Source of the DNA: a virus
Taxonomy: Duplodnaviria > Heunggongvirae > Uroviricota > Caudoviricetes
IMG/VR virus record: IMGVR_UViG_3300029548_000183
Reading direction: 5' to 3' (one strand)
Length of the DNA: 64,000 bases
Every line of letters begins with the position of its first letter. The first letter of the stretch is position 1. The position numbers and the translations under genes are program-made. Below, in pieces: positions 15,001 to 45,944 of the stretch. Under the pieces are notes generated by a model. That model saw nothing but the letters and a program-made list of their open reading frames with translations, was not told where the DNA came from and ran no database searches.

Positions 15001-15031
15001 TAAAAACAGAATTGTCAGATAGGAGAACATT

Positions 15032-16720: not shown

Positions 16721-16736
16721 TAACCATATTAAATAT
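16721..16736 (+). promoter_or_regulatory. conserved promoter-proximal motif (AACCATATTAAATATG variant)
   Basis: Part of a ~80-bp promoter/5'UTR module nearly identical to 28703-28780. Confidence 0.5.
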
Positions 16737-16778
16737 GAAACAAATTAATAATTGGAGTTAAATGAAAGGAGAAAAAGT

Positions 16779-20241: not shown

Positions 20242-20439
20242 ATTATTTCACTCCCTGATATTTTTTTCGTTCACGTTCAATAAACTTAAATTACAACTTT
20301 TGAGGTTAATTGTCAAGCACAATAACCTTAAATTTTTTCTTAAAATGTGCTGCCTTAAATTCATAAATGTTTTCTTAATTGCCTACATTCCCTTTGTTTA
20401 TGGGTTATTTGCTTATATTTTTTTTAAATTTTTCTTTTC

Positions 20440-21140
20440 AACTCTTGAAAATGAAATTCAACTTTTAGGGTTAATTGTGTTTTTCCATTTTACCCTTTGT
20501 AAAAAAATCTTGGTATTTACTCCAAGACTAAAAATCCATCAAAAAGTTTTGACTTTCTATCAAAAAGTTTTAACTTTTTTCCCACAGTTCCCATTTTTCC
20601 TGACTTTTTTTTGACTGTAATATGTTTAACATACTATTTTGTAAATTCATTAGGGGATAGTATATAAGCTTTGAATAATATATTATATTTATATTTTATA
20701 TTTAAGTTTTAGCTATCTTATATCTTTTGGGGAAAGTTTGCAACCCTATTTTTTTGAAAAATCTGGAGTGTCTGCACTTTTCCAGTATTACTTTTTTGAA
20801 CTTTTATTTAATTTCAACTTTTTTAAGTGTTTTTTTGTTTAACTACAAAAAGTTTTGTTTTTTAATTCCATTTTTTTATTTTTCTTTCGGTGATGATTTT
20901 ATTCTTAAAAATAAACTTTTTGCACTATTTATTTTTTTTACTTTAATATAGAAGAAACTCATTACAGATTTGTTTATTTTTGTATTTTGTTTCTTCTTTT
21001 TTTGAAATTCAACTTTTGTGGTTATTTTGCCTTGAGCTCTTCTGCTTTATTTTGTAATTATACAAAAAGTTTTATTTACACTTGTATTATGTTTTGCCTT
21101 TTTAAAATTCAACTTTTTGCAGTGTTTTTATTTATGAAAA
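20440..21140. repeat. dispersed inverted copies of the iteron core (AAATTCAACTTTT..GGTTA)
   Basis: At least 4 copies of the reverse complement of AACCAAAAAAGTTGAATTT, between rep and the direct-repeat array. Confidence 0.45.
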
Positions 21141-21282
21141 TAATCTTCAAAAAATTTTTTTATATATTTGTAAAAAAAATCACTTACATGGATTTGTGTA
21201 CAAGTTAGAAAACAGATCATCATTTTATTGGCAAAAAAATAATTTCTTAGAGAAATAAATTCATCTTTTAAGGTAAATAATT

Positions 21283-22285
21283 AACCAAAAAAGTTGAATT
21301 TCAGGGAAATCTATGTTGCACTTCTGCTTTTTCTTCATAATAAATAAAATTTTGAAAAAAACAAAATAAAACTTTTGTAGTTATTAATTAACCAAAAAAG
21401 TTGAATTTCAGGAAAAACTATATTGGTCTACTTCTTTTGCTTCATAATAAAAAGGATTTTTTAATGACAAATAAAACTTTTAAGGTTATTATTAACCAGA
21501 AAAGTTGAATTTCAGGAAAAATTATATTAGCTTTCTACTTCTGATACATTATAAACAGGATGTTGGGTAAGAACAAAATAAAACTTATGGGGTTAACATT
21601 TAACCAAAAAAGTTGAATTTCAGGAAAAACTATGATGCTTTTTTGCTTTTGCTACATAATAAAAGGGATTGCTTTAAGTAAAATAAAACTTTTAAGGTTA
21701 TTATTAACCAAAAAAGTTGAATTTCAGAAAAAACTATGTTGTTCTACTGCTTTTGCTACATAATAAAAGGGATTGCTTTAAGTAAAATAAAACTTTTAAG
21801 GTTATTATTAACCAGAAAAGTTGAATTTGATAAAAAAAACAAGTTGCTCTCCTGCTTTTACTACACAATAAAAGGGCTTTTTGGGAAAAAAACAAAATAA
21901 AACTTTTGTAGTTATTAATTAACCAAAAAAGTTGAATTTTGGAAAAAACTATGTTGTTTTTCTGCCTTTACTTCATAATGAAAGGAATTTTTTAATAAAA
22001 ATAAAACTTTTATAGTTATTAATTAACCAAAAAAGTTGAATTTTAGAAAAAAACTATGTTGTTCTACTGCTTTTACTACATAATAAAAGGGCTTATTTTA
22101 ATGGAAATAAAACTTTTAAGGTTATTATTAACCAGAAAAGTTGAATTTGATAAAAAAAACAAGTTGCTCTCCTGCTTTTGCCACACAATAAAAGAAATTA
22201 TTTGGAAGAACAAAATAAAACTTATGGGATTAATAATTAACCAAAAAAGTTGAATTTTGGAAAAGTATCATATACTATTGCATAT
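21283..22285. repeat. iteron array: ~10 direct repeats of ~105-110 bp, each containing the core AACCAAAAAAGTTGAATTTCAG
   Basis: Repeat starts near 21283, 21379, 21493, 21601, 21706, 21810, 21920, 22027, 22130 and 22238. Array lies upstream of the divergent Rep_3 gene. Confidence 0.7.
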
Positions 22286-22351
22286 GTTAATAATAAGAAA
22301 TTTTTTTTCATATATAAAAAAAGAAAGCATTTCTGCTTTCCTTTTCTTTTC

Positions 22352-22852
22352 TTATTTCTCTTCTTTTGATAAATTTATTTCTATTATTTTTTTTAGATCA
22401 GGATACTCATTTGAAAGAATATTTAAGTATTCTATAATTGCATCTCTAATAAATTGGGATGTGTTAATATCAGCATATAATGCTGCAGTTTTACTCAACT
22501 CATCCAATTTTCTTGTAAGATATATTTTTTTTTGAATTGTATTTTCTGTTTTTACAAAATCTTCTAACATTTTTTTTATTGAAGTATTTGTTTGATCATC
22601 TGATGATAATTCTTGTTTTTCTTCCTCTTTTTGGGGAAGTGACATTTTTTCTTCTTTTTTTATTTCTTTCTCTAAGTTTATGTTTGACTCTTCAGTAGCA
22701 TTTTCATTTTCTGTTTTATCAGATAATGAATCAGAATCATTTTCTGATATTGGTTTTATTTTTTTTTCTACAACATTATTGCTTTCTTTTTTCTTTTTTT
22801 CACTTTCAAATCCAAACAACAATTCCTCAGTGAAGGATTTTGTTTTTGCCAT
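22352..22852 (-). CDS. small acidic protein with C-terminal ribbon-helix-helix-like segment; probable ParG/omega-type centromere-binding protein
   Basis: Immediately downstream of parA in the same operon; C-terminus ..SKTAALYADINTSQFIRDAIIEYL. Confidence 0.5.
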   Translation of the reverse strand: MAKTKSFTEELLFGFESEKKKKESNNVVEKKIKPISENDSDSLSDKTENENATEESNINLEKEIKKEEKMSLPQKEEEKQELSSDDQTNTSIKKMLEDFVKTENTIQKKIYLTRKLDELSKTAALYADINTSQFIRDAIIEYLNILSNEYPDLKKIIEINLSKEEK

Positions 22853-22869
22853 AATTTTATTTCTCTCCT

Positions 22870-23637
22870 CTATTTTTCATTTATAAATTCATCAACTAAT
22901 TTGACATAGTCTTTTGCACTTGTACAATTAGGCATGTAATTTAATAACAGTTCTCTTTTGGTTTGCGCTTCCTTGACACTAATGCATCTTCTAATTGTTG
23001 TTTTAAAAAGTTTTGTTCCTATTTGTCCAGCTATTTCTTCCAAAGTTTTTTTAACTTCTCTGGAAAGAATAGTTCGTTTATCATCCATGACAAGAAGTAA
23101 TCCTGCTATATTTAAATTTGGATTAAATCTTTTTTGTGTCTTCTTTATTGAGTCATATAATTGAGCTAATCCCTGTACTCCATATTGATCTGCTGTTATT
23201 GGGATGATAATATCATCAACTGCAACAAGGCAATTAATCAATAATGTATTTAAACTTGGACCAGTATCAATAACTAAATAATCATATCCATTTAAATTGG
23301 AAATGGAATCTCTCAATTTAAAGAAACCATCAACATCTCCATTTAATATTTTGTCAGCATTTGAAAGAAGACTATCAGATGCAATAATATCTCCTGCTTC
23401 TGTATGCTGAATTGCTTCATTAATGTCAACCGGATTTTCTTCTTCAAGAATTACATCATATAAGGTAGTTATACCATCTCCTGTATTAGCTCTGTATGTA
23501 TTAGTGCTGTTGCACTGTGGATCTGCATCTATAAATAAAACCTTATATCCTTTTGTTTGCAATACATTTGCTATTGCTGTGGCTGTGGATGTTTTTCCAA
23601 CTCCACCTTTTTGATTTGCTATAAGTATAGTTCTCAT
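22870..23637 (-). CDS. parA: ParA-family partition ATPase
   Basis: Deviant Walker A motif KGGVGKT in ..IANQKGGVGKTSTATAIA..; typical ParA length. Confidence 0.9.
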   Translation of the reverse strand: MRTILIANQKGGVGKTSTATAIANVLQTKGYKVLFIDADPQCNSTNTYRANTGDGITTLYDVILEEENPVDINEAIQHTEAGDIIASDSLLSNADKILNGDVDGFFKLRDSISNLNGYDYLVIDTGPSLNTLLINCLVAVDDIIIPITADQYGVQGLAQLYDSIKKTQKRFNPNLNIAGLLLVMDDKRTILSREVKKTLEEIAGQIGTKLFKTTIRRCISVKEAQTKRELLLNYMPNCTSAKDYVKLVDEFINEK

Positions 23638-23689
23638 TTTTTTCTCCTAATTTTATAATATGTGTACTCCTTTTATATACTATACTTTT

Positions 23690-23880
23690 TTTTGATTTTT
23701 ATGTCAATGAATTTTAGTACCAAAGTACTAAGGTACCAAGGTACTATAGTACTGTTTTTTTTTAGAAAATAGACGGTACCAAAGTACCAAGGTACTGCTT
23801 TCTTGAAAAATAGACGGTACCTTGGTACTTTGGTACTACTTTTTAAAAGGAAAGACAGAACCAATGTACCTTAGTACTAG
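23690..23880. repeat. heptad-repeat operator/centromere-like site upstream of parA (GTACCAA/GTACTAA units, direct and inverted)
   Basis: GGTACCAAAGTACCAAGGTACT in both orientations. Confidence 0.5.
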
Positions 23881-24295
23881 ATTTAAAAATGTATAGTATT
23901 TAAAAAAATCGATAACTGAGGAAAAGTTCTTCTTAAATAACTACTTTCGTATGGTTTTTTATATAATATTTTTTGTATTTTAATATGGTAAGTATATTTT
24001 ATCTGATATGCTTGCATATGAAATACAAGTATATCTGACACTTGGAGATTTACAATAGTAAGAAATATTTGTTCTCCAATTTCCATAATAATTGTTCATA
24101 TTCATTAAGAAAATTATGGTGTTAAATTTTAAAAAAAAATTGTTGCTTTTTTTTAATTTAAAAAATCTTGCTCATTTATTATGTTCCAGCCTTTGTTGTA
24201 AATAATATTATGTTTTATATTTTACATTAAAAAGAAATACCCTTAAAATTGCATTCAGTTATATTATCTTGAAAATATGAAGGGGCTGCGTTTAT

Positions 24296-25190
24296 GATTG
24301 GCAAACAGTATTAAAGTACCAAGGTACTGTCTTTCAGGAATGTATAGACAGTACTAAAGTATCAAAGTACCAAGGTACTATCTTTTGGAAGCATATAGAA
24401 GGTACTAAAGTACCAAAGTACCAAGGTACCAAGGTACTGCCTTTCAGGAATGCATAGACGATACTAAAGTACCAAAGTACCAAGGTACTACATTTTGGAA
24501 GTATATAGACGGTACCAAAGTACTAAGGTACTACATTTTAGAAATACATAAACGGTACTAAGGTACCAAAGTACCAAGGTACTGCCTTTCAGGAATGCAT
24601 AGACGGTACTAAAGTACCAAAGTACCAAGGTACTACATTTTAGAAATACATAAACGGTACTAAGGTACTAAAGTACCAAGGTACTGCCTTTTAGGAATGC
24701 ATAGACAGTACTAAAGTACCAAGGTACTACATTTTGGAAGCATATAGACGGTACTAAAGTACCAAAGTACCAAGGTACTACATTTTGGAAGTATATAGAC
24801 GGTACCAAAGTACTAAGGTACTGCCTTTTAGGAATGCATAGACGGTACTAAAGTACCAAAGTACCAAGGTACTACATTTTGGAAGCATATAGACGGTACC
24901 AAAGTACTAAGGTACTACATTTTAGGAATATATAGACGGTACTAAAGTACCAAAGTACCAAGGTACTACATTTTGGAAGCATATAGACGGTACCAAAGTA
25001 CTAAGGTACTACATTTTAGGAATATATAAACGGTACTAAGGTACTAAAGTACCAAGGTACTGCCTTTTGGAAGCGTATAGACAGTACTATAGTACCAAGG
25101 TACCAAGGTACTGCCTTTCAGGAATGTATAGACAGTACTAAAGTGCCAAAGTACCAAGGTACTACATTTTAGAGACTATACAAACAATTA
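24296..25190. repeat. array of ~17 tandem ~45-58-bp units, each ..ATAGACGGTACYAAAGTACCAAGGTACT..; candidate parS centromere
   Basis: Seen directly. Built from the same GTACYAA heptads as 23690-23880; no unique spacers. Confidence 0.6.
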
Positions 25191-30740: not shown

Positions 30741-31249
30741 AAAATAATGAAAATTAGAAGTCACAATGTGGCTTCTTTTTTTTGCTCAAAAAAAAAGAAG
30801 GCAATGCCCATATTAAGGAAAAGGAAAACAAAATAAACAAAAAATAAAAATATGAAAGGAAATTCAAGAAAAATGCAAGAAGAAAAATCAAACAAAAAGA
30901 AACAAAGGAAACAAAAAAAATTAAAATCATAGACGTATTAATGTTTGGCTTCGCTTATTCGATGGTTGCTGTCTGCTTATTTATTTTATTTATTCTTTTT
31001 TTTTCTATAAAAAATGCTCAAAAACACAGAATGCAAAAATTTTAAAAAAATCAAAAAAAGTAAAGTAGACATATCAGGTTTTCGAAATCTGAAAAACATC
31101 AAAAAAGCATTAATAAAAAATTAATAAAAAAGAAAGGGCATGGCTAATGAGAAAAAACATAAAAAACAGGGGTCACCCATCCCCCCTGACAAAAAGATGA
31201 AGATTATTTGTGTACATTGAAAATTTAAACAAGGAGGAAAGCCTTTCAA

Positions 31250-32776
31250 ATGAAAGGTATAAAATATTTTATGATAAAAGCAATTATTATTGGTGTTGCA
31301 GTAGTATTATTTTTAATTCTTATTTTAACTAGTTATGTTAAGGCTCCACCAAATATGGCATATGTAATTTCCGGATTAAAGAAACATCCAAAAGTATTAA
31401 TTGGAAGAGCAGGAATTAAGTGGCCAATACTTGAAAGACTTGATAAATTATTATTAGGTCAGATTACAATTGACATTAAGACTGAAGGATACATTCCAAC
31501 AAGAGATTTCATTAACATTCAGGTTGATGCTGTTGCAAAAGTTAAGGTTGGAAATACAGAGGAAATGATGGCTCTTGCAATGAAAAACTTTTTAAATAAG
31601 AATTCTGATGCAATCATTGAAGATTTACAGGATTCACTTCAGGGCAATATGCGTGAGATCATAGGTACTCTTGATCTTAGAAGCATCTGTAATGACAGAA
31701 ATGAATTTGGTAACATGGTGCAGGAATCTGCAACTAAAGACATGGCAAAATTAGGAATTGAAATCATATCATGTAACATTCAGAATGTAAATGATGAAAC
31801 AGACTTGATTGTAAACATGGGTGCTGACAATACTGCTAAAATCAGAAAAGATGCAAGCATTGCAAAAGCAGAAGCAGAGAGAGATGTGGCAATTAAACAG
31901 GCAGAGGCAGATAAGGCTGCCAATGATGCAAAAGTAGCATCAGAACTCGAAATTGCTCAGAAGCAGAATGAATTGGAAATCAAGAAAGCAGAGTTAAAGA
32001 AAGTTGCTGATGCAAAGAAAGCAGAAGCTGATGCGGCATATGAAATTCAGCAGCAGGAACAGAGAAAATCAATTGAAATTGCTTCATCAAATGCAGACAT
32101 TGCAAAACAGGAAAGAGAAGCAGAAAAGAAAAAACAGGAAGTATTGGTTAAGGAACAGGCTCTTGCAGCTGAAGTCAAGAAGACAGCAGAGGCAGAAAAA
32201 TTCAGAAGACAGCAGGAAGCAGAAGCTGAATTATTTGAAAGACAAAAAAATGCTGATGCACAGAAAGCAGAAGCAGAAGCTAAAAAATATGCTTTGGAAC
32301 AGGAAGCTGAAGGTATTAAGGCAAAAGGACAGGCAGAAGCTGAGGCAATCAAGGCAAAGGCTCTTGCAGAAGCAGAAGGTCTTCAGAAGAAAGCAGAAGC
32401 AATGCAGAAGTATGGTGAAGCAGCAATACTTGAAATGTACTTTAAATCATTGCCTGAAGCTATTAAAAATGCAGCTGAACCACTTGGAAATGTTGAATCA
32501 ATTACAATGTATGGTAATGGCAACAATGAACAGATGGTAAGTTCAATTATGAACACAGTAACGCAGGTTAATGATGGTATTAAGGGTTCAACAGGACTTG
32601 ACATGAAATCTGTACTTGCAGGTGTTCTTGGAACTAAGGCTCTTTCATCAGTTGCATCTGATAATAATGAAGATGTTGATGCTGATGATCAGAAGAAAGA
32701 AGAAAAAACATCAAAAGAAAATGCTAAATATACAGAAGTTGTAGAAACTGTTAAAAAAGAAAAAACAGAAGAATAA
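31250..32776 (+). CDS. flotillin-like SPFH protein (FloT/YqiK-like)
   Basis: N-terminal TM, SPFH core, then a long Ala/Glu/Lys/Gln coiled coil with EA repeats. The ORF-track entries embedded at 32004-32604 are frame artefacts. Confidence 0.8.
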   Translation: MKGIKYFMIKAIIIGVAVVLFLILILTSYVKAPPNMAYVISGLKKHPKVLIGRAGIKWPILERLDKLLLGQITIDIKTEGYIPTRDFINIQVDAVAKVKVGNTEEMMALAMKNFLNKNSDAIIEDLQDSLQGNMREIIGTLDLRSICNDRNEFGNMVQESATKDMAKLGIEIISCNIQNVNDETDLIVNMGADNTAKIRKDASIAKAEAERDVAIKQAEADKAANDAKVASELEIAQKQNELEIKKAELKKVADAKKAEADAAYEIQQQEQRKSIEIASSNADIAKQEREAEKKKQEVLVKEQALAAEVKKTAEAEKFRRQQEAEAELFERQKNADAQKAEAEAKKYALEQEAEGIKAKGQAEAEAIKAKALAEAEGLQKKAEAMQKYGEAAILEMYFKSLPEAIKNAAEPLGNVESITMYGNGNNEQMVSSIMNTVTQVNDGIKGSTGLDMKSVLAGVLGTKALSSVASDNNEDVDADDQKKEEKTSKENAKYTEVVETVKKEKTEE

Positions 32777-33407: not shown

Positions 33408-33575
33408 TGGCAAAAAGTAGTCAAAAACACAGTTGCAAAAAATGAGCAAAAACTTGTTTTTGATATAGTATTTGTCAAAAGGCAGTCCACGGTTCGGCTC
33501 CGTTAGGCTAAGTGGGATGAGCAGATACATTTCCAACTGCCAATAAAACTAAAAATTAAGAAAGGAAAATTTTTA

Positions 33576-35641: not shown

Positions 35642-38600
35642 ATGGATAATTTTAAAAATTTTACGGATTTAAAACAGAAACAGATTACAATCTGTCAGAA
35701 ACTCATTCCTGTTGGAATGACAAGAAAAAACATTGACATTTTTAATGCAATGGAAAGTGATGAATATGTCTCTGAAAATAAGGGTGAAATCAGAAAGTTA
35801 ATTAAGCTATTGGCCAGAGAAAAAATGGAAGAAGGAATAAGCAAGGCAAAATCAAATTTAAGTTTTACAAAACTTCTTGGCTTGATGAATGAGTACAATG
35901 AAACTGATTCTGAATATAAGATGGAAGTCCTTGAAAGACTCTTTGATGAAAGAGTAAGACTTGCCAACATTATTGCATCAGAATTTAAGACAAAATTTTC
36001 CTGTGCTGACACAATAACTACTCTTCTTCCTGAATATGTTAATGAACATTTCAATGGAAGTGAAAAGGAAGAATACCTAAACCTTCTTGAAGAGGTTAAG
36101 AAACATCAGGCAATGTTTAACAGGTTTGAGTCAAACATTGACAACATGTTTTCACCAATGCTAAAAAAAGGCTCTGTTGTATACAGAATGTTGGTTGAAA
36201 ATACTCAGATATTTCTTAATAACAAATCAAAAACTGATAAGGAAGATTTTAAGAAAATCATTGATTTGTCAGAACTTGATGATGAAACAAAAAGCATCAT
36301 CATCAAAAGATGCATTGACATTGATGAAGAGTCATATGCAGAAGTCCTAATTCAGGAAGACATTGACGGATACAACTATTGCATTGGAATGCTTAATAGT
36401 GAAAGCAAGATGTTTTGTGATAAAAACAAATTAAACTACAAGGACTTTGAACTTAAAAACTTATATAAGGCAATGCTCTGTGAAAAGACTGCATTCTTTG
36501 AAAAAATTGATTCATTTAAAAATGATGAGCAGATTGTGGATTCCTACAATTCATTAATGTCAAACATTAATGCAAAAAACATTGCAAAAACATATGAAAA
36601 GTGCATGGGACACATGGATGGAATGCACATAAAACCATCAGTTCTTTCATTTTATTCTAATGTTGTGTATGGCAAATGGAATGTTGTAAGAAACTGCATA
36701 AGAGCCTACTGTCAGGATGAAATGAATTCAATAAAAAAGAATAAAAAGAGTCTTGATGATTATTATGAAGCTTTCATTAAGAAAGGCATAACAATTAACC
36801 AGATAAGTAACATTGTATCATCATATGCTGAAGAACTTGAGCTAAAGGTCTTTGAGAAAGATTTATCAGATACAATATACAGTTATCTTTTACATAAATA
36901 TGCATGTGTGGAAGAGGAAAAAACTCCATTGAAGTCTGATGAAAGCAAAAATGCAGAAACAATCAGGGTTGAACTTGAACATTGCATTCAGGCATTAAGG
37001 TTACTAAAAATTTATGACACTGAAAATGACAATCTCAATGAAGAAATGAAAACATTGATTGATGAAATCATTGATGAATTGTCACCTGCCATATTATTGT
37101 TCAACATGACAAGAAACTACATAACTGCAAAACCTACTCCAAAGAAAAAACTTGCATTGACATTCAATACTGCAAGCTTTGGAGGAGGGTGGAGTGAAAG
37201 TGTTGAAAGTTCAAAGAGAGTGAGTTTACTAAAGGATGATGAAGGAAACAAGTACCTGATGATATACAACATAACAGGATGTAAGGCTAACAATGTTTCC
37301 ATGGTATCAGTTACGGAAAAAGTAAAGGCGAATTTACTTAATGACAAGAAGAACATTGACTGTTACAGAAAACTTGTATACAGTGCGGTTCCTGATGCAT
37401 TAAAGGACATATCAAGACTTTTCATTAACAAACTTGAAGATGAAGAAATGATTAAACGCTACAAGAATAAGGAACACAAGGAAAACAGGGAATTTCTTAA
37501 TGAACTGATAAGTGTCTTAAAGAAAAAGATTAATGAGCATCCTACATGGTCAAGATATGGCTTTAAGTTTAGGGATGAATACGATTCCTTTGATGATTTT
37601 TGCGATGACATTAATAATCAGGGCTACTATGCAAAATGGAAATACATTCCAAAGACAGTAATTGATGAGTATGTCGAAAATGGATGCATTTATCTGTTTA
37701 AGATTTACAACAATGATTATAGTGCATACAAAAAGGCAGGTTCAAAGGTTAAAACCCATACAAGATACCTTGATTACTTATTTAGTGATGAAAATGAAAA
37801 AACAGATCTCATCAAATTACTTGGAGGTCTTGAAGTATTCTATAGAGAGCCTCAGATTAAGAATCCTTATGTACATAAAAAAGGTAGCATTCTTGTAAAC
37901 AAGAAATACAAGGATGGAACAATCATTGGTAATGAATATAAGGAGTTATTTAAAAAGGCACAGACAACAAAACTTGACAATGTGTATACAAGAGCGTGTC
38001 CATATGACATCATAAAGGACAAGAGATATACAATGGAACAGTTTGAAGTTCATTTTCCAATATTGATTGGTAATGACAATAATCCTGAAAATTTCATTGA
38101 AATGAGTAAACACTTTGTTGAAAATGCAAAGCACACGGTTGTTGTTGGTAGAAACAGGGACAATCTTTTATATGTGTCTGTTTATGAGGAAAATGCCTTA
38201 ATTCATTCAAAATCACTTAATAAAGTAAATGGAACTAATTACAAGGATAAGTTATTCATAATTGAAGATGCAAAGAAAAACAATGCAAGAAACTGGAAAA
38301 CAATAGGCTCAAATGATGCATTGCTGACAGGATACATTTCAGCAGTAATAAAAGATATCACAGACCTTGTTCTTAAATACAATGCAGCTCTCGTCATTGA
38401 AATGGGAAGTAACTTGGCAAAAGACAGAAATCTCTTGCCAAACAGAGTATATACAAAGTTTAAGGAAGCACTACTTCACAAATTGGAATTTCTAATTGAT
38501 TCAGAAAAGGCTGATGATGAACCGGGTGGATTATTACATCCTTATCATTTGACTGAAATTAATAAGAAAAATCCAAAGAGAAGTATTGATACTCCACACA

Positions 38601-39181
38601 ATGGAATAGTGTTACTGGTACCTTCATTTTATTGTGGTTTAACTGATCCGGAATCAAATCTTTGTAATCTTACTTATGCAAGAACAAAAAAGGAAAAGGA
38701 AGAGGTTCTTAAAAAAATTAAGGGATTTAAGTACAATAAGGAAGAAAGTATTTTTGAATTTGTTTATGACATGTCATTATTCAATCCTAACATGAAAGGA
38801 AAGTTTACTTGTACAAGCAATGGAGACAGACTGGTTGATACAGAAAATGATAAGGTGGTAATGGACTTAACACATTATATTGAAGATAAGTTAAAATCAC
38901 TTGGAATCGAGTATAAGTCAGGAAATGAAATTAATCTCATTTCTGATGATGGGTTAACAAATGAAACTTTATTTAACTGTATTAGATACACATTACAGAT
39001 GAACAATGGTAATTTCTTCATTTCTCCTGTTACGGGATTTTGCTATACTTGTGATGGTTGTTCAAACATTTCTTATAATAGAAATTTGTACAACAGATCA
39101 AAACTGGTTAAGGAAAACATAAAGAGTGGAAAGAAACTTAAGTTCATGACAATCAAGGACATTTACAAACCTCAGTCTTAA
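35642..39181 (+). CDS. cas12a: Cas12a (Cpf1)-family protein; RuvC and Nuc catalytic residues appear substituted (predicted nuclease-deficient)
   Basis: Cas12a hallmark blocks found by eye: QKLIPVGMTRKNI (WED-I), RNYITAKPTPKKKLALTFNTASFGGGW, GCIYLFKIYNNDYSAYKK..THTRYLDYLFSDENEKTDLI..LEVFYREPQ, YDIIKDKRYTMEQFEVHFPI, and the RuvC-II block YNAALVIEMG with Glu retained. The RuvC-I position reads TVVVGRNRDNLLYV where IGIDRGERNL is expected. The Nuc block reads TLQMNNGN (Arg replaced by Asn). No DADANGAY-like RuvC-III motif is present. Confidence 0.85.
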   Translation: MDNFKNFTDLKQKQITICQKLIPVGMTRKNIDIFNAMESDEYVSENKGEIRKLIKLLAREKMEEGISKAKSNLSFTKLLGLMNEYNETDSEYKMEVLERLFDERVRLANIIASEFKTKFSCADTITTLLPEYVNEHFNGSEKEEYLNLLEEVKKHQAMFNRFESNIDNMFSPMLKKGSVVYRMLVENTQIFLNNKSKTDKEDFKKIIDLSELDDETKSIIIKRCIDIDEESYAEVLIQEDIDGYNYCIGMLNSESKMFCDKNKLNYKDFELKNLYKAMLCEKTAFFEKIDSFKNDEQIVDSYNSLMSNINAKNIAKTYEKCMGHMDGMHIKPSVLSFYSNVVYGKWNVVRNCIRAYCQDEMNSIKKNKKSLDDYYEAFIKKGITINQISNIVSSYAEELELKVFEKDLSDTIYSYLLHKYACVEEEKTPLKSDESKNAETIRVELEHCIQALRLLKIYDTENDNLNEEMKTLIDEIIDELSPAILLFNMTRNYITAKPTPKKKLALTFNTASFGGGWSESVESSKRVSLLKDDEGNKYLMIYNITGCKANNVSMVSVTEKVKANLLNDKKNIDCYRKLVYSAVPDALKDISRLFINKLEDEEMIKRYKNKEHKENREFLNELISVLKKKINEHPTWSRYGFKFRDEYDSFDDFCDDINNQGYYAKWKYIPKTVIDEYVENGCIYLFKIYNNDYSAYKKAGSKVKTHTRYLDYLFSDENEKTDLIKLLGGLEVFYREPQIKNPYVHKKGSILVNKKYKDGTIIGNEYKELFKKAQTTKLDNVYTRACPYDIIKDKRYTMEQFEVHFPILIGNDNNPENFIEMSKHFVENAKHTVVVGRNRDNLLYVSVYEENALIHSKSLNKVNGTNYKDKLFIIEDAKKNNARNWKTIGSNDALLTGYISAVIKDITDLVLKYNAALVIEMGSNLAKDRNLLPNRVYTKFKEALLHKLEFLIDSEKADDEPGGLLHPYHLTEINKKNPKRSIDTPHNGIVLLVPSFYCGLTDPESNLCNLTYARTKKEKEEVLKKIKGFKYNKEESIFEFVYDMSLFNPNMKGKFTCTSNGDRLVDTENDKVVMDLTHYIEDKLKSLGIEYKSGNEINLISDDGLTNETLFNCIRYTLQMNNGNFFISPVTGFCYTCDGCSNISYNRNLYNRSKLVKENIKSGKKLKFMTIKDIYKPQS

Positions 39182-39287: not shown

Positions 39288-39502
39288 AGTTAAAGAAAAG
39301 CAAATGTCTGCTGATATGCAGATTAGATTGTGCCACTCATTCCATCAGAAGTTAAAAGAAGACGAAATGTCTACCATCATGTAGATCATAACAAGTAGCA
39401 TATCCCAATATACAGTAAAAGGAAGTAAAATGTCTGCCATTATGTAGATATGGTGTGATTACTCTGGATTTCAATGAGAAAAAATTCTGCTGTTGATGAA
39501 AT
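39288..39502 (+). CRISPR. mini CRISPR array: 3 Cas12a-type repeats plus a degenerate terminal repeat, 3 spacers of 26-27 nt
   Basis: Period of 63 nt. Repeats of ~36 nt end in AATGTCTGCTGATATGCAGAT, AATGTCTACCATCATGTAGAT and AATGTCTGCCATTATGTAGAT (Cas12a-like UCUAC-loop-GUAGAU hairpin). A 4th copy at 39470-39502 is degenerate. Confidence 0.75.
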
Positions 39503-39628
39503 ATATTCCGTAAGCTTGTAAAATCATGAAAAGAAAAAATTATTCAAAAACTAAATAGAGTCAGTTAATCTGGCTCTTTTCTTTTTGTAGAATGCAAAAA
39601 TTGAGATAACAAACAAAATGGTATAATA

Positions 39629-39726
39629 AAAAATAAAAAAAGTAATGTCTGCTGTTATGCAGATTCAGTGTGTGTAATAGGACAAACTATATTAAAAGAA
39701 AACAAAATGTCTGCTATTGCGTAGAT
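39629..39726 (+). CRISPR. second mini-array: 2 repeats, 1 spacer (26 nt), with its own promoter-like and terminator sequences
   Basis: Repeats end GTAATGTCTGCTGTTATGCAGAT and AAAATGTCTGCTATTGCGTAGAT. TTGAGA-N15-TATAAT lies upstream (39601-39627). A hairpin plus T-run lies downstream (39740-39766). A separate terminator at 39558-39596 divides it from array 1. Confidence 0.65.
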
Positions 39727-39833
39727 ATAATAAGTAAAAATTGGAGTCAAAAGTAGACTCCTTTTTTTGTACAAAAATAAACAAGGAAACAACCATATTA
39801 AGTATAAGAAAACAATGAAAGAAGGAAGAAAAG

Positions 39834-40786: not shown

Positions 40787-41497
40787 ATGGAAAAGAAAAA
40801 ATTTGACTTGAAAAACTTATCAGACAAGGATCTTGATAACATGTCAAAAGAAGAACGTGATGAGTTGGTTGATCAGTTATTTAAAGAGATGAGAGTTCAT
40901 TTAAGAATGGTAAAAATTAAATTTTTCATATCAATATTTCTTATATTTATGATGCCAATGGTTGTATTTATGTTGTTTGATAATTTAAAAGATAATTTCT
41001 CAAAACCATACCTATATACTATTGAATCATCAGTAAAAGAGGTTAAGGTTGAAGAGAAGGATACCCTCACAACAGATGATAAGTCATCTCATGTTCTTAT
41101 AATTAATGGAAGTAATGTTACAATCTCTGATGATGATTACAAAAAATATTTTGGAAATGGTTTAAGTACAATTAAGTTAAAGGAGAAAAAAATAACCATT
41201 TATGAAGATGGAAATGACATTCAGTATGAGAAAACTTACACTACATGTCCCTGGGAAAAGGAAAAAAGCCTGAGTGAAAAAGATGTGGACAAGATTCTTA
41301 AAAATTTCTCATCAACGGGAAATGATAAAAATAAAGAGTTTGAAGAAACTTTATTATCTGTATATGACAGAGGAAAGGATTCAAGCTCAGTTAAGAATGT
41401 AACAAAAAGCAGTTTAAAATACTGTCCAACATCAATAGCAAGTTGCCTTGATATGGTGGAAATGTTAATAATAATTCTGATTTTCCTAAAATTTTAA
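40787..41497 (+). CDS. hypothetical membrane protein
   Basis: RBS TAGGAGGAT; N- and C-terminal TM helices. Confidence 0.5.
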   Translation: MEKKKFDLKNLSDKDLDNMSKEERDELVDQLFKEMRVHLRMVKIKFFISIFLIFMMPMVVFMLFDNLKDNFSKPYLYTIESSVKEVKVEEKDTLTTDDKSSHVLIINGSNVTISDDDYKKYFGNGLSTIKLKEKKITIYEDGNDIQYEKTYTTCPWEKEKSLSEKDVDKILKNFSSTGNDKNKEFEETLLSVYDRGKDSSSVKNVTKSSLKYCPTSIASCLDMVEMLIIILIFLKF

Positions 41498-41616
41498 AAA
41501 TCATTAAAGAGTCTCAAAAATTTTAAAGTGTATGGGCAACCATATTATGAATACAGAAAGATTTGAGGCTTTTTATATTAAAGAAAATAAAAAACTGGTC
41601 AAAAAAAAAGCCAAAA

Positions 41617-42215
41617 ACCCACTTGCAAAAATCTGGGTATTTTGGAATTTGGTATCATAGTTCTTGTCAAGAGGACAAAACAAACATAATGATGTCATAA
41701 ATCTTTCTCTTACAAAATGAGGAATCATTGTATAGACAAGCCACAATAAAGAAGTCTTATCCCCCTAGTGACTCACAACTGTGGTGTTGGTTCATCCCAA
41801 CTGATTCCACTTGGCAATGATTTTTGCCAAAATAATACTTCTGTCGTAAGAAGTACTCCTTATTTATTGATCATTTCTCCATGGTTAGAAGGCTGTGGAG
41901 AAGAATGCTCTACAAAAAAGTTTGTATCAGGAAAAATCAACATTGTTTTCCTGTTGCAATAAATACAAGAGGAATATTTTTTTTCGAAATGTGTTCATAT
42001 ACTACATTTTTTGTAGCTTGCGTTTGCAACTGTTGTACCTCTTGGGCAGTTGCATCATAGAATCATTGCCTTGGGCATGCCATATGTTGAAATATAATAT
42101 CCTATCCCCCCATTTTTTTTCAATGTATGGTGCCGGCTCATCCCGGCTGATTCTACTTGGCAAGATGAATTGCCAATTTTTTTTAATCTTTTTCACTCAC
42201 ATCCTTTGGGGTGTG
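41617..42215 (+). ncRNA. candidate large structured non-coding RNA immediately upstream of the tRNA (paralog of 6191-6620)
   Basis: ~600 nt without an ORF. Contains two copies of a module: a 5-bp stem with a YTCATC loop (GTTGG..CCAAC / GCCGG..CCGGC, compensatory changes), then TGATTCYACTTGGCAA-N6-TTGCCAA plus a T-run. Shares further blocks with 6191-6620. Confidence 0.3.
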
Positions 42216-42221
42216 GGGCTT

Positions 42222-42295
42222 GGATCATTAGCTCAGCAGGTTGGAGCGGTTGTCTCATAAGCAACAGGTGGTAGGTTCGACTCCTACATGATCCA
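42222..42295 (+). tRNA. tRNA with anticodon CAU (elongator Met or lysidine-dependent Ile2 type)
   Basis: Cloverleaf folded by hand. Acceptor GGATCAT/ATGATCC with 7 Watson-Crick pairs; D-arm GCTC-AGCAGGTTG-GAGC; anticodon arm GTTGT-CTCATAA-GCAAC; T-arm GTAGG-TTCGACT-CCTAC; discriminator A; no encoded CCA. The paired 1-72 position argues against an initiator. Confidence 0.85.
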
Positions 42296-42504
42296 TTAAA
42301 AAAGGAATATTATTCCTTTTTTTTTGCTCTTTTTCTCTGATTAAACAAAAAAGAGTATACAGCCATATTATAAGTGAAGGGCAAAAAGTCCTTCTTCTAA
42401 GTATTACAAATTTTAAATTCAAAAGAAAGGAGGATCAGGGATTAAACTGAATATCAATATTCTACCCATCTGTTATTCTCACAGATGGGTCCCTGTTTTT
42501 ACGA

Positions 42505-43419
42505 ATGTTTTTATTTTTCATTGTGATTGCATTGGGAATTGCAGTTGTTTCAACATGTGTAAAGATTGTGCCACAGGCTCATTCTTACATAATTGAAAGA
42601 TTGGGAGTGTATCAACAGACATGGCCAGTTGGCATACATTTCAAAATTCCATTTTTGGACAGAGTGGCAAGAAAGGTTAATTTAAAGGAGCAGGTTGCAG
42701 ATTTTGACCCACAGCCTGTTATTACAAGAGATAATGTAACAATGCAAATTGATACAATTATTTTTTATCAGATTACGGATCCAAAACTTTATGCTTATGG
42801 CGTTGAAAATCCAATTTTGGCAATTAAGTCATTGACTGCAACAACACTCAGAAACATAGTAGGCGACTTGGAACTTGATGAAACTCTTACTTCAAGAGAA
42901 ACAATCAATGCCAAGATGCGCACAGAACTTGACGTAGCGACTGATCCTTGGGGAATAAAGGTCAACAGGGTAGAACTTAAAAACATCATTCCACCAAGAG
43001 ACATTCAGGAAGCAATGGAAAAGCAGATGAGAGCTGAACGAGAAAAACGTGAACAAATTCTTAGAGCAGAAGGTGAAAAGAAATCCGCAGTTCTCATTGC
43101 AGAAGGAAAGAAGGAAGCTGCAATTCTTAATGCAGAAGCAGATAATAAGGCTGCTGTTCTTAAAGCTGATGCTGAAAAGAAAAAACGAATTCTTGAAGCT
43201 GAAGGTGAGGCACAGGCCATTCTTAGTGTTCAGAAGGCAACGGCAGATGGAATTAAGGTGATTAAGGAAGCAGGAGCAGATGATGCAGTTCTTACACTTA
43301 AGAGTTTAGAAGCTTTTGTGGCTGCAGCTGATGGTCAGGCTACAAAGATTATCATTCCATCAGAAATCCAGGGAATTGCCGGTTCAGTAAAGGCTTTGGC
43401 AGAAACAATCAAGGATTAA
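42505..43419 (+). CDS. SPFH-domain protein (stomatin/QmcA-like)
   Basis: N-terminal TM. IVPQAHSYIIERLGVYQQTWPVGIHFKIPFLDRV matches the stomatin-type SPFH core. No clear RBS before ATG 42505, so the start is uncertain. Confidence 0.8.
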   Translation: MFLFFIVIALGIAVVSTCVKIVPQAHSYIIERLGVYQQTWPVGIHFKIPFLDRVARKVNLKEQVADFDPQPVITRDNVTMQIDTIIFYQITDPKLYAYGVENPILAIKSLTATTLRNIVGDLELDETLTSRETINAKMRTELDVATDPWGIKVNRVELKNIIPPRDIQEAMEKQMRAEREKREQILRAEGEKKSAVLIAEGKKEAAILNAEADNKAAVLKADAEKKKRILEAEGEAQAILSVQKATADGIKVIKEAGADDAVLTLKSLEAFVAAADGQATKIIIPSEIQGIAGSVKALAETIKD

Positions 43420-43585: not shown

Positions 43586-44002
43586 ATGAAATTAGATAAT
43601 AATAATCATTCGGTATTCATGCTCCATTATCACCTTATTATGTGCATTAAATATCGTAATAAAGTTATAGATGATAAAATCTCAAACCGTCTCAAAGAAA
43701 TATTTGAGAAGATAGCTCCTTCCTATAACATCACGTTAGAGGAATGGAATCACGACATAGACCATGTACATATACTATTTCGAGGACAGCCCAATACGGA
43801 AATAAGTAAATTTATCAATGCTTATAAATCTGCAAGCAGTAGACTTATCAAAAAAGAATATCCTCAGATACGTAAATATCTCTGGAAAGAGATGTTCTGG
43901 TCACAGAGCTTTTGTCTGTTAACCACGGGCGGTACTACGGTAGATATTATTAAGCAATATATCCAATCTCAAGGTAAGAAAGATGGCAAACAGAGCAATT
44001 AA
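43586..44002 (+). CDS. tnpA: IS200/IS605 family transposase TnpA (HUH Y1)
   Basis: HYHLIMC..YRNKV.. and ..HDIDHVHILFRGQP.. (HuH motif), ..ASSRLIKKEYP..LWKEMFWSQSFCLLTTGG.. over 138 aa. Confidence 0.85.
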   Translation: MKLDNNNHSVFMLHYHLIMCIKYRNKVIDDKISNRLKEIFEKIAPSYNITLEEWNHDIDHVHILFRGQPNTEISKFINAYKSASSRLIKKEYPQIRKYLWKEMFWSQSFCLLTTGGTTVDIIKQYIQSQGKKDGKQSN

Positions 44003-45128
44003 GTACAGAGCATATCCTACAACTAAACAATCTGTCATGTTTGCTAAGACCTTTGGCTGTTGTCGTAAGGTCTATAATCTCATGCTTTCAGATAAGATTG
44101 AAGGCTACAAGGCTACTGGTGAGTTTCCTACTGTTACACCTGCTAAGTATAAGAACGATTATCCTTATCTTAGAGAAGTAGACAGCCTTGCTCTTGCCAA
44201 TAAGCAGATGGACTTACAGGAGGCTTTTCGTAATACATTTAGTAAATCTCGTAAGAAGAAAAACGGTTTTCCTAAATTCAAGTCTGCCAAACATAGTCGT
44301 AAGTCCTATACTACAAACAATCAAAAAGGCACAGTTGCTATCATAGATAACAAATGTATTAAGCTCCCTAAGATTGGAAAGGTAAAAGCTGTTATCCATC
44401 GTGTGCCTGACGATAGTTGGACAATTAAATCGGCTACCGTATCACAGGAATCTGACGGCAAATATTATATCTCCGTACTCTTTGAGTTTGAGAATACCGT
44501 AAATCCTTATGTAGCCGATAAAACTAATGCCATCGGGTTAGATTATGCTTCCGACGGCTTATACGTAGATAGTAATGGCAATACAGGTACTAATCATAAG
44601 TATTATCGTGAGAGCCACAACAAGCTTGCTAAGGCTCAGCGTAAGCTATCACGTATGCAAGGCTCTAAGAAACACGAGGTTAAGTCCAATAATTATATAA
44701 AGCAACTCCGTAAAGTGAATAAGATACATAGGCATATCGCTAATCAGCGTTTGGATAACCTGCATAAGATATCTACTGAGATAGCCAATCAGTATGATGT
44801 TGTTTGTGTAGAATCCCTAAATATGAAAGTTATGTCAAATAAAGGTTTTGGTAATGGCAAAGCTACTCTTGATAACGGATATGGCATGCTCCTGTCTATG
44901 CTTGAATACAAGTTATCTGACAGGAATAAGTATCTCATCAAGGTAGACAAGTGGTTCCCGTCATCACAGATATGTCATTGTTGTGGTATGCTACATCCTG
45001 AAATGAAGAATTTAGCCATCCGTAAAATGACATGTAATTGTGGTCTTACAATAAGCCGTGACCAGAACGCTGCTATCAATATCCTAAAGGAAGGATTACG
45101 ACTACTGACTGAAGTAGCCCGAAACTAA
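43983..45128 (+). CDS. tnpB: TnpB (IS605 OrfB) RuvC-like RNA-guided nuclease family protein
   Basis: C-terminal zinc finger ICHCCGM..CNCG, followed by ISRDQNAAINILKEG (RuvC-III). Start overlaps the end of tnpA. Confidence 0.85.
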   Translation: MANRAIKYRAYPTTKQSVMFAKTFGCCRKVYNLMLSDKIEGYKATGEFPTVTPAKYKNDYPYLREVDSLALANKQMDLQEAFRNTFSKSRKKKNGFPKFKSAKHSRKSYTTNNQKGTVAIIDNKCIKLPKIGKVKAVIHRVPDDSWTIKSATVSQESDGKYYISVLFEFENTVNPYVADKTNAIGLDYASDGLYVDSNGNTGTNHKYYRESHNKLAKAQRKLSRMQGSKKHEVKSNNYIKQLRKVNKIHRHIANQRLDNLHKISTEIANQYDVVCVESLNMKVMSNKGFGNGKATLDNGYGMLLSMLEYKLSDRNKYLIKVDKWFPSSQICHCCGMLHPEMKNLAIRKMTCNCGLTISRDQNAAINILKEGLRLLTEVARN

Positions 45129-45350: not shown

Positions 45351-45401
45351 TGTGCCAACAACCATATTACAGGTATGAAACAAAAGAAAGGGGGAAGACT
45401 T

Positions 45402-45944
45402 ATGACAAAATTAGAGTTTGATAATAAAAGATTTTCTGAAATAATAACATCCAATAATTTAAATACAAAAGAATTGGCAAAAAGCCTTGGCATATCTGAA
45501 ACAACAGTGTTTAACTGGATGAGAGGAGATGCCATTCCATCCAATGGATATGTTGAAAAGATTAATAAAGTAATAGGTGTGGAACTGTTTTATAAAACAA
45601 AGTCTGATAAAAAGACAAAATATAAAAATGATAAAACAGTAGTGAATGGCATAAAGTTTGATTCTGTTAAGGAAGCAAAACGATATTCAGAATTAAAGAT
45701 TCTTGAAAAAATGGGAGAAATCACTGACCTTCAGATGCAGGTTAAATATGTATTAATTCCTTCCCAAAAGGATGAAAAAGGAAAATGCATTGAAAGAGAA
45801 TGCTCTTACCTTGCTGATTTTGTATATAAAAATAAAGAAGGGAAGATGGTGGTTGAAGACACAAAGGGTATCAGAACAACAACATACATCATAAAAAGAA
45901 AATTGATGCTATATGTTCACCATATAAAAATAATAGAAATTTAA
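45402..45944 (+). CDS. HTH (XRE-like) DNA-binding protein with C-terminal DUF1064-like domain
   Basis: LAKSLGISETTVFNWMRG helix-turn-helix. C-terminal ..NGIKFDSVKEAKRYSEL..YLADFVY.. RBS AAAGGGGGAAGA before ATG 45402. Confidence 0.5.
   Translation: MTKLEFDNKRFSEIITSNNLNTKELAKSLGISETTVFNWMRGDAIPSNGYVEKINKVIGVELFYKTKSDKKTKYKNDKTVVNGIKFDSVKEAKRYSELKILEKMGEITDLQMQVKYVLIPSQKDEKGKCIERECSYLADFVYKNKEGKMVVEDTKGIRTTTYIIKRKLMLYVHHIKIIEI

Follow-up and report, generated by a model that had tools for sequence, protein, structure and literature searches.

A candidate family of cloverleaf RNAs with tRNA-like helix geometry on an extrachromosomal element of the human gut

What is encoded in the 600 or so nucleotides (nt; positions 41617–42215) that stand immediately before the tRNA(CAU) gene in IMG/VR record IMGVR_UViG_3300029548_000183, filed under Caudoviricetes, of which 64,000 nt (here called the window) were analysed? 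An original prediction, made from the letters, had seen there a structured region free of open reading frames (ORFs), with two copies of one hairpin module, unmatched to any named family and reminiscent of the large ornate RNAs ROOL and GOLLD. Each of the two modules is the 3′ end of an 84–97-nt four-way-junction RNA, which we named TLS. On balance we favour the view that the region holds two members of a three-member family of structured small-RNA genes, the products of which are perhaps matured by tRNA-processing enzymes and act in trans. Our doubt attaches mostly to the processing and the mode of action, and less to the existence of a functional structured RNA.

How does the duplicated module look on closer measurement? 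It is real: a 49-nt direct repeat (41782–41830 versus 42128–42176; 76% identical, 346 nt apart), with ATCCCCC on the 5′ side of both copies (41759–41765 and 42104–42110) and an 11-nt repeat, TCYTATCCCCC, just 5′ of both (345 nt apart). Each copy has a 5-bp stem and a 6-nt loop, GTTGG-TTCATC-CCAAC in one and GCCGG-CTCATC-CCGGC in the other; the two stems differ by two fully compensatory pair changes. Both copies continue with TGATTCYAC and then the hairpin TTGGCAA-N6-TTGCCAA. Three particulars of the original prediction need correction. The span given for the first copy, 41785–41815, does not fit the 48-nt string quoted with it, and the real span is 41783–41830. The T-run said to follow both copies follows only the second (T8, 42177–42184), the first having AAATAATAC instead. 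The region is ORF-free in the functional sense only, for mechanical ORFs of up to 121 aa are present (41895–42260, overlapping the tRNA). The ORFs that cross the region match nothing in Pfam, no gene is called within it on the 18 loci listed with gene tables, and the longest ORF is broken by a 1-nt indel at 42113 in 8 of the 19 aligned rows; small ORFs are negligible as an explanation of the region. The module, moreover, makes up only part of its unit, being the 3′ half of a larger cloverleaf, of which a third copy lies at 6409–6514.

What does the module pair with? The TGATTCC of the first copy and the TGATTCT of the second are exactly complementary to GGAATCA (41721–41727) and AGAATCA (42059–42065), 75–83 nt upstream, and the difference between the closing stems of TLS1 and TLS2 is compensated on both strands. 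Every TLS is closed by a stem of 7 bp. Within it come first a hairpin of 4 bp with a loop of 3–4 nt and next a long arm, in the apical loop of which stands UAUCCCCC / YAUCCCCC; a 5-bp hairpin, its loop YUCAUC, then abuts the 3′ strand of the closing stem without a linker, and one unpaired A comes last. The TTGGCAA hairpin already reported begins two nt after this A. Unconstrained folding of each stretch alone returns the same four-way junction, which persists when 20–40 nt of flank are added. The scores in bits listed here were obtained with covariance model R1, which was built from TLS1, TLS2 and their strain variants (alignment A1).

41721–41809, + strand: TLS1 cloverleaf; minimum free energy (MFE) fold of 41721–41810 alone −23.8 kcal/mol, z −2.9; 128 bits with R1
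41721–41727/41802–41808, + strand: TLS1 closing stem, GGAAUCA/UGAUUCC
41728–41731/41736–41739, + strand: TLS1 short hairpin
41740–41785, + strand: TLS1 long arm, loop UUAUCCCCCUAGU
41786–41790/41797–41801, + strand: TLS1 5-bp hairpin, loop UUCAUC; unpaired A41809
41811–41830, + strand: TLS1 3′ hairpin, UUGGCAA-UGAUUU-UUGCCAA; having no U-run it is no terminator, and the terminator scan does not list it
42059–42155, + strand: TLS2 cloverleaf; MFE fold alone −31.3 kcal/mol, z −3.9; 114 bits with R1
42059–42065/42148–42154, + strand: TLS2 closing stem, AGAAUCA/UGAUUCU
42067–42070/42074–42077, + strand: TLS2 short hairpin
42079–42131, + strand: TLS2 long arm, 14 bp in the MFE fold, loop containing UAUCCCCCC
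42132–42136/42143–42147, + strand: TLS2 5-bp hairpin, loop CUCAUC; unpaired A42155

Does the cloverleaf occur elsewhere in the window? A search of the whole window with R1, filters off, found a third copy on the + strand at 6409–6514 (64 bits, E ~1e-10; the runner-up scored 15 bits), 35 kb from TLS1 and TLS2. Common to all three are the 6-nt YUCAUC loop, YAUCCCCC, GAAUCAUUG and a 3′ hairpin; the sequence of the central arm of TLS3 is unrelated to the arms of the other two. No tRNA stands beside TLS3, the unit around which (unit A, 6236–6612) has its own promoter motif and terminators, and adjacency to a tRNA, which the original prediction had pointed out, is thus not a property of the family.

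6409–6492, + strand: TLS3 cloverleaf, the third paralog; MFE fold alone −27.4 kcal/mol, z −5.5; 64 bits with R1
6409–6415/6485–6491, + strand: TLS3 closing stem
6416–6419/6424–6427, + strand: TLS3 short hairpin
6428–6437/6459–6468, + strand: TLS3 central arm, a perfect 10 bp, ACUUACAUGA/UCAUGUAAGU, loop CUCAUCCCCCAAUAAACGCUC
6469–6473/6480–6484, + strand: TLS3 5-bp hairpin, GCCGG-CUCAUC-CCGGC; unpaired A6492
6496–6513, + strand: TLS3 3′ hairpin, GACAAG-GCAAAA-CUUGUC, in the same position as in TLS1 and TLS2 and different in sequence

How far does the conserved unit extend? The homology between unit A and the unit that contains TLS2 (B2) reaches ~170 nt upstream of the cloverleaf, 6245–6514 aligning with 41898–42175. 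Their 5′ domains alone give a local alignment score of 64, against 28 ± 5 for 500 dinucleotide shuffles, and share motifs that include AAAUACAAGAGGAA and CCUCUUGGGCAGUUG. Because the homology extends upstream of the cloverleaf, we put the conserved unit at ~270–380 nt. Read in this way, the ~600 nt that had been taken for one RNA resolve into two tandem paralogous units, each around a cloverleaf of ~90 nt: B1 (about 41665–41860), with a short leader, and B2 (about 41870–42184).

41831–41869, + strand: spacer after TLS1, with a hairpin (41836–41842/41849–41855) and the motif ACUCCUUA, shared with the stretch downstream of TLS3
41870–42058, + strand: 5′ domain of unit B2, homologous to 6236–6408, with motifs AAAUACAAGAGGAA and CCUCUUGGGCAGUUG
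41877–41900, about 41928–41953 and 42025–42053, + strand: hairpins of the B2 5′ domain, from the fold
6236–6408, + strand: 5′ domain of unit A, with a long hairpin (6241–6302), the motif AAAUACAAGAGGAA, and a hairpin (6376–6401) containing CCUCUUGGGCAGUUG
6514–6652, + strand: tail of unit A, with a hairpin (6524–6551, loop ACACUCCUUAA) and terminator-like hairpins at about 6590–6612 and 6626–6652

If these helices are real, have they been kept by selection? In alignment A3 (the three paralogs and their strain variants, 13 distinct rows, fitted to the model and leaning towards it), 98.2% of the cells are standard pairs, against 24–46% when the 3′ partners are slid by 1–3 columns. Changes on both sides are found in 8 of the 27 pairs, and none of 500 shuffles reached the observed paired fraction, double-change count or covariation score. 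When only TLS1 and TLS2 are taken, in a MAFFT alignment not fitted to the model, 98.0% are paired and five pairs show double changes. We conclude from these comparisons that every TLS helix has been kept through compensatory mutations, that is, by selection on structure; the earlier description of a non-coding structured region under selection, argued from compensatory changes, is borne out.

Which strand is the RNA? G–U pairs, which would be C–A on the opposite strand, occur at several positions, for example at the pair that closes the central arm. At its first pair the closing stem has G–U in two strain variants of TLS2, G–C in TLS1 and TLS3, and A–U in the reference TLS2. Folded against shuffles, the whole region gives z −6.3 on the + strand and −3.7 on the − strand. 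Given the G–U pairs, the better fold of the + strand, the promoter motif upstream and the terminators downstream, we take the + strand to be the RNA strand.

How much do the units vary among strains? Many contigs of 60–183 kb from human-gut metagenomes carry the same element, and a pattern scan of metagenomes added a further variant, L033. The region is almost invariant among strains except in one haplotype (L010, L011 and the similar L033), which differs by ~8% over 41505–41875. In TLS1 the substitutions of these three fall in the central arm or the loops only, with none in the closing, D-like or 5-bp stems, and their changes at 41835 and 41837 keep or extend the spacer helix (41836–41842/41849–41855). 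On each of the 10 strain contigs retrieved the match to TLS3 is equal in score and in length, and 6409–6493 is identical to the letter.

Where might transcription start and stop? The motif AAAAACCCACTTGCAAAAATC at 41613–41633, with which the original prediction opened the region, does recur, with three mismatches, at 45965. It is one member of a wider promoter-like family, AAAA(A/C)NCAC(AG)TTGC(A/G)AAAA / AAAACACAGTTGCAAAAAAT, found at 6192, 12700, 26533, 33428, 41620 and 45972; each member has a TAnnAT hexamer ~20–26 nt downstream, often with TG before the hexamer. Transcription of B1–B2 would start at about 41665. B1 has no terminator and B2 no promoter motif, for which reason a primary transcript of ~520 nt ending at 42184 is the simplest reading. 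The 7-bp stem, 6-nt loop and T8 of 42157–42184 have the form of an intrinsic terminator, which probably ends this transcript. In the 36 nt between it and the tRNA the scan lists no + strand promoter-like site, and the tRNA would therefore be reached by read-through. The region does end 6 nt before the tRNA-Met(CAU) gene, which ARAGORN places at 42221–42296.

41603–41658, + strand: promoter-like element of B1–B2, with an A-rich tract, CCCACTTGCAAAAAT, and an extended −10, TGG TATCAT (41650–41658; hexamer 41653–41658)
6176–6234, + strand: promoter-like element of unit A, with the family motif AAAAACACAGTTGCAAAAAAT and a TATGAT/TATAAT −10
42157–42184, + strand: TLS2 3′ hairpin plus T8, an intrinsic terminator in the terminator scan (7 bp, 6-nt loop, TTTTTTTT), 36 nt before the tRNA
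42196–42217, + strand: hairpin in the tRNA 5′ leader, CUCACAUCC-UUUG-GGGUGUGGG, from the fold
42221–42296, + strand: genuine tRNA, anticodon CAU (Met or Ile2), by ARAGORN and Rfam RF00005 (63.7 bits); no encoded CCA; the only tRNA of the window
42298–42325, + strand: terminator after the tRNA, inverted repeat AAAAAAGGAAUA-U-UAUUCCUUUUUU, with similar cassettes at 6626 and 16678

Variants of the promoter-like motif occur at 10216, 31027 and 53209. A second recurrent motif, AACCATATTA, stands before many genes, and conserved terminators of the form AGAGTCAC..GTGGCTCTTTTT recur. We rejected a sigma-54 promoter reading of TGGCAA-N-TTGC, the spacing of which is one base too long and which is missing from TLS3.

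Does the cloverleaf belong to a known family? We ran cmscan against Rfam 15 over the whole window at gathering scores, and over 41300–42500, 6100–6750, 42050–42160 and 6400–6505 at E ≤ 10. No family was assigned to any of the three units, be it tRNA, transfer-messenger RNA (tmRNA), Y RNA, ROOL, GOLLD, riboswitch or ribozyme, in agreement with the original prediction, which could name none; the scans matched only the real tRNA and an unrelated HEARO RNA. The TLS are three non-coding paralogs of one anatomy on the + strand, with every helix under selection, with YAUCCCCC and UCAUC invariant, and absent from Rfam 15.

The nearest likeness is to tRNA (RF00005). All three TLS have its 7/5 geometry, a 7-bp stem on a 5-bp hairpin with no linker and then an unpaired A (in TLS1, GGAAUCA/UGAUUCC and GUUGG/CCAAC, then A), so that the four-helix cloverleaf contains a 12-bp branch of 7-bp and 5-bp helices followed, after the closing stem, by a single unpaired purine. 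As in the neighbouring real tRNA, no CCA is encoded. Unlike that of tRNA, the central arm is long, is free in length and sequence, and always displays YAUCCCCC. ARAGORN at default settings does not call the TLS copies. The group is probably best described as a lineage-restricted structured RNA family with tRNA-like 7/5 helix geometry, a ‘tRNA-shaped non-tRNA’.

Other RNAs of this general kind are known, and each differs from TLS. Allo-tRNAs are tRNAs with a non-canonical cloverleaf (PMC5389517). A tmRNA is found neither by ARAGORN at default settings nor by Rfam, and pair 3–70 is A–U in all copies and not the G3–U70 of tmRNA; a lone ‘tmRNAp’ call appears only at the 70% threshold. The bacterial Y RNA YrlA, which in M. 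smegmatis is cut by RNase P and is given a CCA, is likewise non-coding, is also found on phages, and mimics part of a tRNA (PMC4201824). Unlike TLS it has canonical D- and T-loop nucleotides with tertiary contacts, an adjoining Ro60/TROVE gene and a Ro-binding helix. TLS has non-canonical loops and no match to the Y RNA models of Rfam, and no TROVE domain was found in a Pfam scan of ~50 window proteins, a subset of the ORFs of the element. The pseudo-tRNA tRNAOther of Bacillus cereus is reported to be a regulatory RNA that has a cellular effect and no role in translation (PMC3399842). It too is a tRNA-shaped RNA of a Firmicute linked to a mobile island; it is, however, still predicted as a pseudo-tRNA, whereas TLS is not recognised as a tRNA at meaningful thresholds and has a large additional 5′ domain and three paralogs. 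RNAC and RNAD of phage T4 lie in the tRNA gene region, are related to one another and have tRNA-like ends. PMC9697503 describes them as small RNAs whose function is not yet known. They are small stable RNAs from a mobile genome, as TLS would be, a comparison by description that serves as a lead only. ROOL and GOLLD are also structured non-coding RNAs found on mobile elements next to tRNAs, but the TLS unit of ~270–380 nt with a ~90-nt cloverleaf core contrasts with their ornate fold of 600–800 nt, and neither covariance model matches (the window at gathering scores; 41300–42500 even at E ≤ 10), so that the ROOL/GOLLD comparison of the original prediction did not survive. Nor do the units look like riboswitches or attenuators: a terminator directly follows TLS2 only, the TLS1 and TLS3 hairpins lack U-runs, and no alternative pairing is conserved. 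We rejected a link to a Cas12a CRISPR RNA, a TnpB/IscB guide RNA or insertion sequence (IS) ends, to which there is no similarity. The template and variable repeats of a diversity-generating retroelement were rejected as well; the differences between copies are not adenine-specific, and no reverse transcriptase occurs among the proteins scanned.

How might TLS RNAs be made, and what might they do? Transcription would begin at promoters of the element's own type, at about 41665 for B1–B2 and at about 6236 for unit A. The B1–B2 transcript would end mainly at the TLS2 terminator (42157–42184), some read-through supplying tRNA(CAU). By virtue of its tRNA-like minihelix TLS would be cut 5′ of the 7-bp stem by RNase P and, after the unpaired A, be cleaved by RNase Z or receive CCA; stable RNAs of ~90 nt would be released. 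That TLS may be a substrate of RNase P, RNase Z or the CCA-adding enzyme is an analogy, which we draw because of the YrlA precedent (PMC4201824). The RNAs might then act in trans through their single-stranded YAUCCCCC and the UCAUC loop, either by pairing with a G-rich RNA or by binding or titrating a protein that recognises tRNA.

Could the TLS RNAs be tRNA mimics in the full sense, cut by RNase P and RNase Z, tailed with CCA, and offered as decoys, or as adaptors, to some factor of the host by which the acceptor/T minihelix is recognised? We consider this unlikely. The host factor in question might be a defence toxin directed at tRNA, an enzyme that modifies or charges tRNA, or a translation factor; the conserved C-rich loop would be a second binding surface, and together with the tRNA(CAU) and IF3 of the element such mimics might bias host translation or evade tRNA-directed immunity. 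tRNA-shaped RNAs that are not tRNAs are rare and tend to be informative, as tmRNA, Y RNAs and pseudo-tRNA regulators illustrate. If expressed, TLS would be a family of structured RNAs not described before, without an entry in Rfam 15 and present in three copies on a widespread human-gut extrachromosomal element; a new case of tRNA mimicry on a mobile element may bear on conflict between plasmid or phage and host, or on the control of translation.

What RNA might the loops meet? On its + strand the window has a single GGGGG run, which belongs to the ribosome-binding region (AAAGGGGGAAGACUUAUG) of a helix-turn-helix/DUF1064 gene (45387–45405) and is complementary to the UCCCCC(U) loop motif of TLS. 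The 5′ leader of the IF3 gene (33478–33575, + strand) contains GGGAUGAGC, which is exactly complementary to GCUCAUCCC, found in the 5-bp hairpin that TLS2 shares with TLS3; it is also largely complementary to central loops, to CUCAUCCC in TLS3 and CUUAUCCC in TLS1. Either match may be due to chance. The same leader holds a T-arm-like hairpin, ACGG-UUCGGCU-CCGU. Two candidate targets of the C-rich loop were set aside, namely the GGGGGA that stands at a ribosome-binding site (45390) and, within the leader of infC, GGGAUGAGC (33513); they are too few, post hoc and of no evidential value. We also discarded a kissing loop between UCAUC and the GAUGA loop of the TLS2 3′ hairpin, which is not conserved in TLS1, its variants or TLS3.

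Several points weigh against a family of trans-acting RNAs matured as tRNAs are. The likeness to tRNA is one of helix lengths and topology only. The Rfam tRNA model finds no match to TLS1–3 at E ≤ 10 in queries of 106–1201 nt. The loop of the 5-bp hairpin is the 6-nt YUCAUC, without a T54–A58 arrangement; the D-like loop is AUAG, UUG or UUUG, without the GG of G18G19; in place of a 5-bp/7-nt anticodon arm there is a central arm of 5–14 bp with loops of 13–25 nt; and the junction, unlike that of tRNA, has almost no linker nucleotides. Relaxed ARAGORN calls of TLS1 and TLS2 (-ps80/-ps75) were discarded, since a shuffled window yields as many (10–20 at -ps80, 52–72 at -ps75). Comparison of the TLS units with the neighbouring tRNA gives no significant similarity in sequence, and on that ground we rejected descent from it. 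The start, the ends and the processing of the transcripts are all deduced from sequence, and the candidates for a target or partner are post hoc. Finally, the family is found, by the searches described below, in one element lineage only, and its covariation comes from just three paralogs and near-identical strains, and thus from few independent events.

What else, then, might the region be? It is quite unlikely that the cloverleaves are decaying tRNA pseudogenes, the functionless debris of a former tRNA array. The original prediction had named such debris as an outcome that would overturn it. The shape is indeed tRNA-like, with 7-bp and 5-bp helices, an unpaired A and a real tRNA adjoining, and in related large elements there are tRNA arrays with as many as 16 members. 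Decay is another matter. The three copies share derived features foreign to tRNA (the YUCAUC loop, YAUCCCCC, the 3′ hairpin and the 5′ domain) and therefore stem from an ancestor already modified; every helix has been retained through double changes; the TLS stay near-invariant among strains while the flanking DNA of one haplotype has diverged by ~8%; and unit A has a promoter motif and terminators of its own. The relaxed ARAGORN calls, which might have been cited for debris, carry no weight after the shuffle control, and similarity to the adjacent tRNA is lacking. We also think it improbable that the junction is a riboswitch-like leader or attenuator in cis, sensing a signal and controlling the terminator at 42157–42184 and with it the tRNA(CAU) and the downstream Band_7 gene. 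The intrinsic terminator does follow TLS2 directly, 36 nt before the tRNA, with no + strand promoter-like site listed in between; both TLS loci lie upstream of Band_7/SPFH genes (42505–43419 and 7412–8344); and the 5′ strand AAUCAUUG has some complementarity with the 5′ arm of the 3′ hairpin, for example 42061–42070 with 41813–41822. Against this, a U-run follows just one of the three 3′ hairpins, two terminators close unit A and the gene after it has a promoter-type motif to itself, a different gene directly follows unit A in L040 and L046, and L047 lacks the Band_7 block further downstream. The alternative pairings, moreover, fall in non-homologous registers in the three copies, and hence there is no conserved antiterminator; no riboswitch family matches either.

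That the two modules are internal repeats of a single ornate RNA of ~600 nt in the style of ROOL or GOLLD we regard as very unlikely. A single primary transcript of ~520 nt is likely, B1 being without a terminator and B2 without a promoter motif, the fold of the entire region is far more stable than that of shuffled sequences (z −6.3), and the region adjoins a tRNA on a mobile element. But a lone unit exists at 6236–6612, and therefore it is the unit and not the pair that is conserved; the long-range pairs of the 604-nt fold are not common to unit A, and neither ROOL nor GOLLD gives a match. Highly improbable, lastly, is an explanation at the level of DNA, by single-stranded structures or protein-binding palindromes such as IS200/IS605-type ends (PATE), recombination sites or single-strand initiation signals. 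The element does carry an IS200/IS605 (43586–45128) and a HEARO RNA, and it encodes an integrase as well as a toprim-like protein; the sequence TTGGCAA-N6-TTGCCAA is perfectly palindromic; a 10-kb block that some strains lack adjoins unit A; and 6242–6382 gives a weak, non-significant Rfam match to IS605-orfB-II (19 bits, E 0.98). TLS3, however, has an unrelated hairpin in place of the palindrome, the boundaries of the block fall on repeated terminator/promoter cassettes (6626 and 16678) and not on TLS, the paralogs, at most 76% identical, have diverged far too much for recent copies made by transposition, no similarity to the resident IS ends exists, and the G–U pairs and the asymmetry of the strands favour RNA.

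How widely is this RNA family distributed? Homologs were seen only in near-identical copies of the element from human-gut metagenomes, and a descriptor of our own, which asks for a 7-bp stem and a 5-bp hairpin looped by YTCATC, matched nothing but the three paralogs across all the sequences gathered. When both loci were compared by BLAST with the phages of GenBank and the plasmids of PLSDB, the only matches were tRNA-only ones in Vibrio. Three pattern scans of IMG/VR gave nothing real and one chance match (L035). A scan of GTDB genomes gave four chance matches without hairpins, and a scan of JGI metagenomes recovered the same element (L030, L033, L034) and two chance matches; the patterns of these two scans, designed before TLS3 was known, require bases that it lacks and would miss TLS3-like relatives. 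The 236-aa protein upstream of the region has no homologs, and the Band_7 relatives in IMG/VR (L001–L007) are without TLS. Covariance-model searches were negative in the related large elements reached through an R2K ATP-grasp protein of 55–60% identity (L049–L055) and in the chromosomal paraslipin loci of Eubacterium sp. metagenome-assembled genomes (MAGs; L058–L062).

One of these related elements, L049 (13100–13675), has two strong sigma-70-like promoters followed by a ~450-nt unannotated non-coding stretch directly before its own tRNA-Met(CAU); this stretch matches neither Rfam nor models R1 and R2. L049 also encodes SmpB, ClpB and a GGDEF protein. Among the other ATP-grasp-linked relatives, L053 / L054 (1878–7308) and L051 (974–1870) carry a 16-tRNA array and a homolog of Thg1, the tRNA-His guanylyltransferase; the L049–L055 group invests heavily in tRNA-related functions.

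What kind of element carries the units? To judge by its genes, the window comes from no typical phage but from a large element, plasmid-like or a phage-plasmid, that a Firmicute of the human gut carries: it encodes a Rep3 initiator, ParA, a tyrosine integrase, DNA methylases, Cas12a, IF3, three Band_7 proteins and a SpaA/thioester pilin, with a sortase gene just outside. The Band_7 (paraslipin) gene downstream of the tRNA (42505–43419) is 87–89% identical to chromosomal NfeD-linked paraslipins of Eubacterium sp. MAGs (e.g. GCA_047242425.1; L058–L062). For this reason a Eubacterium sp. is the probable host, and the identity suggests recent capture of the gene from it.

A replication and partition module extends over 18985–25172. 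It contains Rep3 (− strand), ~9.4 copies of a 104-nt iteron-like repeat (21265–22264), ParA (22870–23637, − strand) and dense arrays of GTACCAAG / 43–51-nt repeats (23715–25172). The Cas12a/Cpf1-like protein (35642–39181, + strand) has 1179 aa, and 1192 aa in some strains. Cas12a-type repeats (AAUGUCUGC....GCAGAU / GUAGAU) stand at about 39303, 39366 and 39428 within 39300–39730, and more at 39643 and 39706, behind a terminator and a promoter-like stretch, making two mini CRISPR arrays.

The HEARO RNA (IscB-associated omega RNA, RF02033; 12045–12254, + strand, 93 bits) is also present in strain contig L039; beside it there is no full-length ORF of IscB size, its neighbours being of 164 aa and 118 aa without a Pfam match. 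It lies, with a Band_7 gene, in the block of ~10 kb (about 6650–16700) that is missing from L040 and L046, in which unit A is followed by a 196-aa gene and an integrase; L047 has a different, shorter arrangement. Similar terminator/promoter cassettes flank the block (6626–6691 and 16678–16743).

The IS200/IS605 element extends from 43445 to about 45290 (TnpA 43586–44002, TnpB 43983–45128), sits immediately behind TTTTTAA on the downstream side of the Band_7 gene, and is missing from L011 and L024. In its left end stands AAAUCCCCCACCUCUACAGGUGGUGG, which is among the few other ATCCCCC sites that the window has. The leader of a flotillin/Band_7 gene (31250–32776) holds a hairpin, CAGGGG-UCACCCAUC-CCCCUG, containing CAUCCCCCC (31167–31188, + strand), behind a variant of the promoter motif at 31014–31040. 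An exact 70-nt direct repeat (692–761 and 1947–2016, 1255 nt apart) lies around a glutamine-amidotransferase-like gene.

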